This document shows, in pieces, positions 43,101 through 46,100 of a stretch of DNA of 64,000 bases. A program made the position numbers. The stretch is from Escherichia coli. GTDB lineage: Bacteria; Pseudomonadota; Gammaproteobacteria; Enterobacterales; Enterobacteriaceae. How positions within the stretch are numbered: the stretch's first letter is position 1; each line of letters begins with the position of its first letter. The stretch lies in NCBI RefSeq assembly GCF_003334305.1, contig NZ_QOWS01000004.1; one strand, 5' to 3'.

Positions 43101-46100
43101 TCAACAACCAACGTCTGACCGTTACTTTGGATCATTACCGGGACGATCTCATCTTTAAATCGTCCGGCGTCAATCGCCGCTCGCGCTTTTTGTTGCGAGC
43201 TAAGTGCGTAAGCATCCTGCAATTGACGGCTGATGCCATATTCGCGAGCCAGATTTTCGGCGGTGACACCAATATGATAATCATTGAAGGCATCCCATAA
43301 CCCATCATGCACAAGACTGTCAACCAGCTGGCTATTGCCAAGCTGTGCACCGGTGCGGCTATCAGTCAGAACATGTGGTGCGCGGCTCATGTTTTCCTGG
43401 CCACCGGCGATGACAATATCAGCCTCGCCACACTGTATCGCCTGAGTAGCCAGATGCAGTGCTTTAAGTCCGGAACCGCAGACGTCATTAATCGTGATTG
43501 CAGAAACGCTATTAGGCAGACCACCTTTAATAGCCGATTGCCTTGCCGGATTCTGCCCTGCCCCTGCAGTCAACACCTGACCAAGAATTACTTCATCCAC
43601 CGCATATGCAGGAACGCCGGTACGTTCTATTAACGCTTTCACGACCAGACTACCAAGTTCCACGGCGGAATGACCCGCTAACGCACCGCGAAAGCAGCCG
43701 ATAGGTGTCCGTAACGCCCCGACAATCACAACGTCTTTCATCACAACCTCGCACCAATTAACAGTGCAATAGTAAATGATTGTTAATTACAGTTATCTTA
43801 ATTGTTTAAAAAAAGTGATTTTTATCACAAAGGAAATATGCCTGAGCAGTAGTCAGAGTCATAACTGGCACGTAAGGTTTGCAACCACTAACCCACCAAT
43901 AGAGGGGTAGATAGGGCGTTAATCTCCCATACTTAACCTGGTTTATGGTAAATTGCCCTCCATTTTGTTTAATTTGTAGATGATACGTTCAGATAATGTC
44001 TAATATTTGGTCTAAAGAAGAAACTCTGTGGAGTTTCGCGCTCTACGGCACAGCCGTTGGTGCAGGCACGCTCTTCCTTCCTATTCAGTTAGGTTCGGCA
44101 GGGGCTGTGGTCCTGTTTATTACTGCTCTGGTCGCCTGGCCTTTAACATATTGGCCACATAAAGCCTTATGCCAGTTCATCCTCTCATCGAAAACATCAG
44201 CAGGTGAAGGGATAACGGGCGCAGTAACACACTACTATGGCAAGAAGATTGGTAATCTGATTACCACGCTGTACTTCATCGCCTTTTTTGTCGTCGTGTT
44301 GATATATGCAGTGGCAATTACCAACTCACTTACGGAACAGCTGGCAAAGCATATGGTTATTGATCTTCGCATCCGTATGTTGGTGAGTCTGGGTGTTGTA
44401 TTAATCCTGAATCTCATTTTTCTGATGGGACGCCATGCAACCATTCGGGTAATGGGTTTTTTGGTATTCCCATTGATTGCCTATTTCTTATTTCTTTCCA
44501 TTTACCTTGTCGGTAGTTGGCAACCTGATCTATTAACGACCCAGGTAGAGTTCAATCAGAATACCCTTCACCAGATATGGATATCGATTCCCGTGATGGT
44601 TTTCGCCTTTAGCCATACGCCCATTATTTCTACGTTTGCCATAGACAGACGTGAAAAATATGGCGAACACGCTATGGATAAATGCAAAAAAATTATGAAA
44701 GTCGCTTATCTCATCATCTGCATAAGTGTACTGTTCTTTGTCTTTAGCTGCCTGCTTTCTATTCCACCTTCGTATATTGAAGCGGCTAAAGAAGAAGGGG
44801 TCACCATTTTATCGGCGCTTTCTATGCTGCCGAACGCCCCAGCATGGCTGTCAATTTCCGGGATTATTGTCGCAGTAGTTGCGATGTCGAAATCATTCCT
44901 GGGTACGTACTTTGGCGTTATTGAAGGTGCCACGGAGGTCGTCAAAACAACACTACAGCAGGTTGGTGTAAAGAAAAGTCGTGCATTTAACCGCGCACTA
45001 TCAATTATGTTGGTATCGCTGATCACCTTCATTGTTTGTTGCATTAACCCGAACGCGATTTCGATGATTTACGCGATCAGCGGCCCGCTCATTGCCATGA
45101 TACTTTTCATCATGCCTACGTTGTCAACGTATCTGATCCCGGCGCTTAAACCCTGGCGTTCCATCGGAAATCTGATTACGCTGATCGTGGGTATCCTGTG
45201 CGTATCGGTAATGTTCTTTAGCTGATATCCATTGTGAATGGTTCAAAATTGCTACAATTTTGAACCATTCCAGTTTTCATAATGTTCATTCGTTATTATT
45301 CCGCACTATCACTTCCCTCATCATATCCTAGTATTATCAGTTAGTTAAACACACAAAGAGATCTGAACATCTTAAATAAGACTATTTAAGATGCATAACT
45401 TAGATTCGCAAGATATCTTCCGGTCATTCAAAAACAATTTGCGATATAGATATTCTCATACCATGAGATAGTTATCTGAACCACCCTCAACCAGGTAAGA
45501 TTAAATCAGTGAAACATAATCATATTTAATAACGAGAAATGCATTTTAAAATGTCTTAATCAGAATTATAGCAAATACAGATTAATCGCAATTTTTCCCA
45601 GCAAAATTACAAAATCATGGTGTATTGACATCATCAATCACCAATGAAATTATGCAATTATATACGGATAGGGAGGTTCTTAACATGGGGCTTTGTAGTC
45701 GTTATAAAAGTCTTACATGCAATAGTTGCTCAATGCATTGCCAAATAATGCCAGAAGAGTCACCGCGTTTGCAGTACTGCGCAAACTCGTGTTTTTGTAT
45801 GTGGCCCGAAGAAAGTTCATATTTTAATCGTGGTGTGGTAGAAGGTATCTTAACAAAAAACCACAATGCGAGATTAAGCGGATATATTTTTGTCGATTTT
45901 TCAGTAAGTTTTTTACGTCTATTCCTTGAAAAAGACTGGATTGACTATCTTGCAAGTACTGACATGGGGATTGTTTTAGTCAGCGACCGCAATATGCAAT
46001 CGTTAGCTAATTACTGGCGAAAACACAACTCAGCAATATCTGCTGTCATATATAATGATGATGGTCTTGATGTTGCCAATGAAAAGATCAGACAACTATT

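Follow-up and report, generated by a model that had tools for sequence, protein, structure and literature searches.

A G+C step at the 3' end of yqeG and the left edge of the ETT2 island in Escherichia coli

We analyzed a 64,000-nt window of Escherichia coli DNA (contig NZ_QOWS01000004.1, assembly GCF_003334305.1; coordinates are window positions) in which G+C-rich chromosome gives way to AT-rich DNA around the gene yqeG. We found a G+C step that is real and far beyond chance. The interval is very probably the junction of vertically inherited chromosome (kduI, yqeF and yqeG) with the horizontally acquired, AT-rich island of ETT2 (type III secretion system 2 of E. coli). An earlier reading, made from the sequence alone, had placed a compositional boundary marking the proximal edge of the island at 43745-45700. 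The step does mark the ETT2 edge, and the edge is inside that interval. It does not lie near 43745: the edge is at the 3' end of yqeG (45226-45400), ~1.5 kb further on, and the yqeF-yqeG spacer and yqeG are core.

Over 42000-47000, the window and E. coli strain A7 share 100% identity, and 5420 of 5426 complete E. coli genomes match. Our gene map is the RefSeq annotation of strain A7, put into window coordinates (Table 1). The names yqeF and yqeG used in the sequence-only reading are correct, based on this identity and on the gene order kduI-yqeF-yqeG-yqeH-yqeI.

The composition step and the ETT2 island

We found that G+C falls by 17 points. It is 51.9% across 1-43744 and 53.8% in yqeF, compared to 34.6% across 45226-64000 and 34.7% across 45400-64000 (the island plus 59 nt of flank). 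Tracts of at least 10 nt containing only A and T occurred at 5.17 per kb after 45226 vs 0.50 per kb in the core, and A or T homopolymers of at least 5 nt at 7.8 vs 3.6 per kb. These measurements bear out the earlier description of G+C-rich DNA through yqeF and of AT-rich DNA with long A/T runs beyond 45.2 kb. The yqeF-yqeG spacer (43742-43995), also described as AT-rich, has 36% G+C, and yqeG, which had looked intermediate, has 45.0%.

A uniform G+C profile, the outcome named beforehand as speaking against a boundary, was not what we found. A single maximum-likelihood change point fell at 45200-45208, with a 2-lnL support interval of 43755-45230. Its log-likelihood ratio (LLR) was 782, compared to shuffles (n=1000, 250-nt blocks) that averaged 20.5 and reached at most 84.7. 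A three-segment model with cuts at 43744 and 45225 gained 19 lnL units.

Synonymous codons also separated the two sides. We used a leave-one-out log-likelihood, core vs island, in place of the classical codon adaptation index. The synonymous-codon LLR was positive for all core genes (18/18), with G+C at third codon positions (GC3) of 0.38-0.64. It was -0.12 to -0.27 for all intact island genes (16/16), with GC3 of 0.25-0.39. The first island gene, yqeH, has 37.4% G+C and a GC3 of 0.34. Approximately 35% G+C persists past the edge in genes, pseudogenes and spacers alike, and both G+C and codon usage are uniform in E. coli from yqeH to the secretion genes.

The AT-rich DNA agrees with ETT2 in position, low G+C, gene content and variable presence, being absent from the phylogroup B2 strain IMT5155. 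The island fills the interval between yqeG and glyU in strain A7, and the layout in K-12 is the same. After yqeI, the order in strain A7 is yqeJ, yqeK, ygeG, ygeH, ygeI, genes for type III secretion like that of SPI-1 (pathogenicity island 1 of Salmonella), a GH15 gene, glyU and actS. SctJ, SctI, PrgH, OrgA, SctU, SctT, SctS, SctR, SctQ and the HilA-family regulator YgeH are annotated in the island, many of them as pseudogenes (RefSeq annotation of strain A7). The regulators yqeH, yqeI, ygeH and ygeK lie within it, as expected of ETT2 gene content, judging from RefSeq annotation only.

Published ETT2 has 36.9% G+C, compared to 50.8% for the chromosome, and adjoins glyU (PMC11068852). The window island has the same yqeG-glyU position, the same order of yqeH, yqeI, yqeJ, yqeK, ygeG, ygeH and SPI-1-like secretion genes, and a similarly low G+C (34.7% vs the published 36.9%). 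Its pseudogenes and deletions, and the absence of ETT2 from B2, are also as in the literature (PMC11068852, PMC7058095, PMC4700944). The window copy is a degraded 18.5 kb vs ~29.9 kb for the intact island; otherwise nothing essential differs. The junction is already known, and ETT2's location beside glyU, low G+C and H-NS silencing have all been published.

Could the AT-richness be secondary, the product of native pseudogenes drifting toward A+T under relaxed selection? Many genes of the island are frameshifted or truncated, according to the annotation. However, its intact genes (sctJ, sctR, sctS, sctT, ygeH, ygeG and others) have a GC3 of 0.27-0.39, as low as the spacers, the complete 29.9-kb ETT2 cluster is reported at the low G+C cited above (PMC11068852), and other genera have no island at the yqeG locus. 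This explanation is already disfavoured, and we give it almost no weight.

yqeF, yqeG and their spacer as core DNA

We found that the spacer between yqeF and yqeG looks like other core spacers. Of 5426 E. coli genomes, 5420 have it, ETT2-less ones included. Core spacers of at least 100 nt in the window span 32.5%-52% G+C (for example, araE-kduD, 32.5%; lysA-lysR, 33.9%; kduI-yqeF, 36.4%). Because its 36% G+C falls within this range, the yqeF-yqeG spacer is an ordinary promoter-bearing spacer. Similar AT-rich dips elsewhere in the core, at araE-kduD (40332-40645, 32.5%), rppH-mutH (27126-27809, 38.9%) and lysA-lysR (37049-37169, 33.9%), are ordinary regulatory spacers that could pass for foreign DNA in a sliding-window profile.

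The protein that yqeG encodes accounts for the gene's intermediate G+C. The gene has G+C of 0.46, 0.39 and 0.50 at codon positions 1, 2 and 3 (GC1, GC2 and GC3), and its GC3 equals that of yqeF (0.49). Its synonymous-codon LLR is +0.08, on the core side. We scanned one genome per species for YqeG orthologues and found 80 orthologous loci, with 73-99% amino-acid identity, in >20 genera of Enterobacteriaceae, including Citrobacter, Salmonella enterica subsp. arizonae/diarizonae, Enterobacter, Klebsiella, Kluyvera, Raoultella and Lelliottia. A divergent yqeF lies upstream of yqeG in most of them (>70 loci of other genera). In 73 loci, GC1 of yqeG was 0.44-0.53 and GC2 was 0.39-0.43 regardless of genome G+C, and GC3 of yqeG exceeded that of yqeF by a mean of 0.03. 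Since only codon positions 1 and 2 carry the deficit, and all genera have it, the comparison indicates that the low G+C of yqeG is a protein-composition effect (YqeG is a hydrophobic membrane protein), and neither a transition zone nor partial amelioration. By the same comparison, yqeG is a vertically inherited, resident transporter gene.

These data bear on the proposal that the island starts at 43745, with yqeG and the spacer as its older, partly ameliorated outer portion. Spacer and yqeG together have 43.4% G+C, below every core window of equal length (minimum 44.8%), and yqeF and yqeG are listed as ETT2 genes in some of the ETT2 literature (PMC11068852). The proposal conflicts with the conservation of yqeG together with yqeF at orthologue-type identities in >20 enterobacterial genera, and with the presence of yqeG in 5420 of 5426 E. 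coli genomes, also those without ETT2. The G+C of the spacer is typical, the deficit of yqeG sits at codon positions 1 and 2 in all genera, and its GC3, equal to that of yqeF in Escherichia, tracks yqeF in every genus. We consider the proposal effectively refuted and its probability negligible. Unlike the gene list in PMC11068852, our analysis places yqeF, yqeG and their spacer in core DNA, outside ETT2, and they should not be counted as part of the island. The intermediate G+C of yqeG should likewise be read as a reflection of amino-acid composition. The two-step G+C gradient would then have three independent causes: an AT-rich promoter spacer, the protein composition of YqeG, and the real edge after yqeG.

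We noted some variation at this locus. Between yqeF and yqeG, Citrobacter has a 294-aa LysR-type regulator and a 151-aa small membrane protein, as read in C. werkmanii. The yqeF-yqeG gap is ~1.7 kb in most other genera (Enterobacter, Klebsiella, Kluyvera and others), and 220-254 nt in Escherichia and a few genera. The stop codon of yqeG (45223-45225) is TGA in this strain and TAA in K-12, IAI39, IMT5155 and E1V33.

The edge and the junction in ETT2-less genomes

We found a terminator-like hairpin directly after yqeG. It starts 10 nt past the stop codon and has a 16-bp perfect stem and a 3-nt loop, followed by the T-rich run CAGTTTTCAT. The predicted fold energy is -22.5 kcal/mol (z = -5.95), and none of 200 shuffles equalled it. 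Every Escherichia lineage examined keeps the hairpin sequence. A different strong hairpin occupies the equivalent place in other genera; when the yqeG 3' flank was aligned outside Escherichia, there was no sequence homology and only the presence of a hairpin was in common. Judged by its predicted structure, the hairpin at 45236-45270 is the probable terminator of yqeG; it lies to the core side of the junction.

The sequence-only reading had suggested a comparison with ETT2-less strains to define the insertion point. In the avian pathogenic E. coli strain IMT5155, 316 nt separate yqeG from glyU, with no gene between. The first 174 nt match window positions 45226-45399, and the other 142 nt match the window from 63942. 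Of 5426 complete E. coli genomes, 1218 have this 316-nt site unbroken, with 45399|45400 joined to 63941|63942. Nearly all other genomes have the 316-nt query in two separate places, split at 171-174|175 among the matches listed, and 4026 of 5426 carry the ETT2 left end. The comparison thus gave a sharp junction at 45399|45400. It most likely did not give the original insertion point, because the junction is best read as a deletion scar.

The ends of the interval do not resemble those of a site-specific insertion. The two junctions share neither a direct repeat nor an att-like duplication: when the 50 nt around each were locally aligned, the score was 5, compared to 6.97 +/- 1.58 under the null. 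The annotations of A7, K-12 and IAI39 list no integrase in the yqeG-glyU interval. The right junction is 142 nt from the 3' end of glyU and not inside the tRNA gene, and the junction is probably a deletion scar. The B2 junction carries no insertion sequence (IS), no repeat and no microhomology. The flanks of strain A7 and B2 are 97-98% identical, with no anomaly except 90.5% in the last non-coding 200 nt.

Several comparisons suggest that the B2 junction most likely goes back to one old deletion that became fixed in that lineage, and that it is probably not an empty insertion site. Strain IAI39 (phylogroup F) contains an ETT2 remnant whose junctions on the left and on the right match those of the window, and the first 95 nt after yqeG in this strain are identical to B2. 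The homologous yqeG-yqeH spacer runs through 45400 in strains SCPM-O-B-8794 and E1V33 and in the E. albertii type strain. These three are equidistant from B2, F, A and the window. Nucleotide identity of yqeG is 91.4% in SCPM-O-B-8794, 87.7% in E1V33 and 85% in the E. albertii type strain, and divergence rises with phylogenetic distance. A fourth lineage, Escherichia sp. MOD1-EC7003 (96% for yqeG), has a near-empty site with a different junction. On the island side, ~46 nt (45400 to ~45445) remain there, and the right flank is missing a part that B2 keeps; from this arrangement, the site can only be a deletion derivative. Independent whole-island deletions in EC291 and KTa005 have IS1 at the deletion site. 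In EC291, IS1 sits directly between the yqeG hairpin and glyU; in KTa005, the deletion extends from ~45478 to a ygeQ fragment.

The B2 junction also interrupts conserved sequence. A palindrome with 11-bp arms at 45368-45393 occurs once in the window; its predicted fold energies are -10.1 kcal/mol (+ strand, z = -4.7) and -11.5 kcal/mol (- strand, z = -4.3). It opens an ~100-nt block (~45360-45455) that is conserved to E. albertii and also in E1V33 and SCPM-O-B-8794. The sequence between the yqeG terminator and this block is less conserved across species than the block, and the B2 junction cuts the block in two. An Rfam scan of 43600-46000 at E <= 1 gave no match, the palindrome included.

We read the B2 junction as a scar because of IAI39, the non-coli lineages, MOD1-EC7003, the IS1 deletions and the cut through the conserved block. 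The true edge of core and island therefore is between the yqeG stop codon and terminator (45226-45270) and 45400, and the insertion point is resolved only to ~45226-45400. Finer rooting of the empty site is impossible because the yqeG 3' flank is unalignable outside Escherichia and the glyU flank varies among Escherichia species; in our comparison of other genera and Escherichia species, the glyU 3' flank was not conserved even in E1V33 and E. albertii. Loss of the island by deletion is recurrent, and the B2 junction would be one such old event. Read in this way, the B2 'empty site' is unusable as an insertion point and should not serve as evidence of a late arrival of ETT2.

Some side observations concern these loci. 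EC291 has a second IS1 beyond actS, with idi and lysS standing where xdhA normally lies. In the E. albertii type strain, only ~1.3 kb separates yqeG from glyU and ETT2 is almost wholly deleted, whereas other E. albertii strains are reported to have intact copies. What the type strain retains is the yqeG-yqeH spacer, including the promoter-like TTGACA of yqeH, and a GH15-related fragment (52% over 93 aa). B2 genomes have 7 substitutions in the 25 nt at 45320-45344, left of the scar (GTAATATTATATAATTATCAGCCAG, compared to GTCATATCCTAGTATTATCAGTTAG in IAI39, which differs from the window at 1 of 25 positions). This far exceeds the 2-3% divergence of the flanks. Candidate explanations are repair at the deletion or a small imported patch.

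Alternatives, silencing and related islands

The alternative to a scar is that the B2 site is an untouched target, that ETT2 came after the B2 split, and that the junctions are the exact ends of the insert. A clean junction without an IS, identical in 1218 genomes, would fit this, as would the ordinary divergence of the flanks between phylogroups (97-98% identity). It is also the view of Ren et al. 2004, as reported in PMC7058095. It is difficult to reconcile with the non-coli Escherichia lineages, because all four sampled, equally distant from B2 and other E. coli, carry the island left end or a scar with island sequence, or with IAI39, a phylogroup F strain whose island has the same junctions. 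A target-site duplication is absent (score of 5 vs a null mean of 7.0), and the junction splits the conserved ~45360-45455 block. In addition, Ooka et al. place the acquisition of ETT2 before the split of E. coli and E. albertii (PMC4700944). The untouched target is already disfavoured, and we regard it as improbable. A somewhat better case can be made that yqeH-yqeK is a separate, older module, with the secretion island proper starting from ygeF/ygeG onward, so that the step would be the edge of a composite region. Approximately 1.9 kb downstream of yqeG, both C. sedlakii and C. amalonaticus carry a homologue of yqeH (amino-acid identity of 78-79%); its neighbours are marT/fidL-like genes and rcnR/rcnA-like open reading frames (named by sequence resemblance). 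In C. sedlakii, a yqeI-like gene (68%) is found farther downstream. No type III secretion gene was present in the 6 kb read at the Citrobacter yqeH loci, although such genes may lie beyond. Strain E1V33 points the same way. Its island is cut to ~4.9 kb, and yqeH is 96% identical to that of the window, whereas yqeI, yqeJ and ygeH are 72%, 71% and 62% identical and the flanking YqeG and YqeF 97-98%. This unevenness makes the histories mosaic and suggests that alleles were replaced or that rates differ greatly across the island. Most genera also have a synteny break point at the 3' end of yqeG. The uniform G+C and codon usage from yqeH through the secretion genes in E. coli argue against a separate module, as does published work that puts yqeH-yqeK in ETT2; the reading of only 6 kb at the Citrobacter loci also limits the case. 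We think this version unlikely, and it refines the junction of core and ETT2 more than it contradicts it. Given the Citrobacter homologues, the yqeH-yqeK left arm may be an older or separately moving module.

The composition of the island is that expected of xenogeneic DNA silenced by H-NS: 34.6% G+C and A/T-only tracts of at least 10 nt at ~10 times the core density. In K-12, a yqeG-ygeI fragment forms H-NS hairpins in vitro, and ygeH is derepressed ~5-fold when hns is mutated and ~150-fold when hns and stpA both are (PMC12460168). The authors ascribe the limits of such domains to sharp G+C differences (PMC12460168). H-NS-bound 'promoter islands' have been described at yqeH/yqeI, ygeF/ygeG, ygeG/ygeH, ygeH/ygeI and ygeK/ygeM (PMC3661553), and repression of ygeH by H-NS is reported from work on enteroaggregative E. 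coli 042 cited in a review (PMC11068852). Extrapolating from the published K-12 work, the AT-rich island DNA would be coated by H-NS/StpA and folded into silenced hairpin domains, and the left limit of the silenced domain would be set by the rise in G+C at yqeG. The yqeG terminator, if functional as predicted, would keep core transcription out of the silenced domain. The ~45360-45455 block could be a functional boundary or regulatory element and not a neutral spacer, for instance a site nucleating or limiting an H-NS/StpA domain or a distal yqeH operator, but we consider this doubtful. The G+C step at the yqeG 3' end is a convenient natural test case for how the limits of H-NS/StpA domains are set.

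Some points weigh against our overall interpretation. The 174 nt left of the junction (45226-45399) are AT-rich like the island and not assignable to core or island, and they do not align outside Escherichia. We searched for the H-NS consensus TCGATAAATT. Allowing up to 2 mismatches, matches were 2.3 times denser in the island than in the core, as A+T alone would give, and there were none in 45226-45684. For this strain, H-NS binding and the boundary it would set are extrapolated from the K-12 literature. The polarity of the deletions, as we have assigned it, depends on parsimony over few outgroup genomes, and the deletion pattern would also be mimicked if the island had moved repeatedly between strains through homologous recombination in the flanks. 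A paper citing Ren et al. 2004 describes B2 as ancestral and as never having had ETT2 (PMC7058095).

We compared the island with three known types of system. SPI-1 is an AT-rich type III secretion island in a conserved core interval, with no known integrase or flanking direct repeats, and is silenced by H-NS. It lies between fhlA and mutS, not beside a tRNA gene, and is functional. The window island resembles SPI-1 in being an AT-rich secretion island with neither integrase nor flanking repeats. The ETT2 secretion genes are SPI-1-like (PMC4700944). In contrast to the functional SPI-1 at fhlA-mutS, ETT2 is 142 nt away from glyU and, in E. coli, mostly degraded. Integrase-type tRNA islands (the locus of enterocyte effacement, LEE, at selC, and the pathogenicity islands of uropathogenic E. 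coli) share adjacency to a tRNA 3' end, deviant G+C and strain polymorphism with the window island. Unlike them, the window island has no direct repeats and no annotated integrase, and its junction is 142 nt off glyU. Where a mechanism of ETT2 loss is visible, it is IS1-associated, and no site-specific excision is evident. The H-NS/StpA chromosomal hairpins and hairpin domains (CHINs and CHIDs) seen by Micro-C in K-12 offer a comparison for the step itself: the homologous yqeG-ygeI region is the published in vitro example of a hairpin (PMC12460168), and the step at 45.2 kb is of the kind to which its authors ascribe domain limits.

Table 1. Features of the window around the edge of core and island (strand: +, - or. 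for none)
Feature	Position	Strand	Basis or remark
kduI	41437-42273	-	Strain A7 annotation
yqeF, acetyl-CoA C-acetyltransferase	42560-43741	-	Strain A7 annotation; NCBIfam thiolase match, E 1e-196; final G+C-rich core gene
yqeF-yqeG divergent spacer, 254 nt, 36% G+C	43742-43995	.	Ordinary core promoter-type spacer
yqeG, HAAAP-type serine/threonine-transporter-family permease	43996-45225	+	NCBIfam TIGR00814 stp, E 7e-155
AT-rich 174-nt stretch 3' of yqeG, 31% G+C, kept in ETT2-less genomes	45226-45399	.	
yqeG intrinsic-terminator-like hairpin	45236-45270	+	Terminator scan, fold energy
Perfect palindrome CATCTTAAATA-AGAC-TATTTAAGATG	45368-45393	.	Just left of the B2-type junction
Degraded ETT2 island, 18,542 bp, delimited by the B2-type junction	45400-63941	.	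Junction mapping, annotation
Promoter-like site: TTGACA, 17-nt spacer, AATTAT, extended TG	45625-45653	+	Consensus scan only; ~30 nt upstream of yqeH
yqeH, LuxR-type helix-turn-helix regulator, first island gene	45685-46317	+	Strain A7 annotation; weak NCBIfam EcpR-like match
yqeI	46651-47460	+	Strain A7 annotation
GH15 gene	62240-63850	-	Strain A7 annotation
Start of the glyU-proximal flank (142 nt)	63942-64000	.	Unique match of GATTGCATTGCGTAAACGC at 63942
glyU, tRNA-Gly(CCC)	~64084-64157, beyond the window end		Position from strain A7

The promoter-like site in Table 1 lies in a region that is kept in other lineages. In alignments, the TTGACA region upstream of yqeH was conserved in E1V33, SCPM-O-B-8794 and E. 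albertii.

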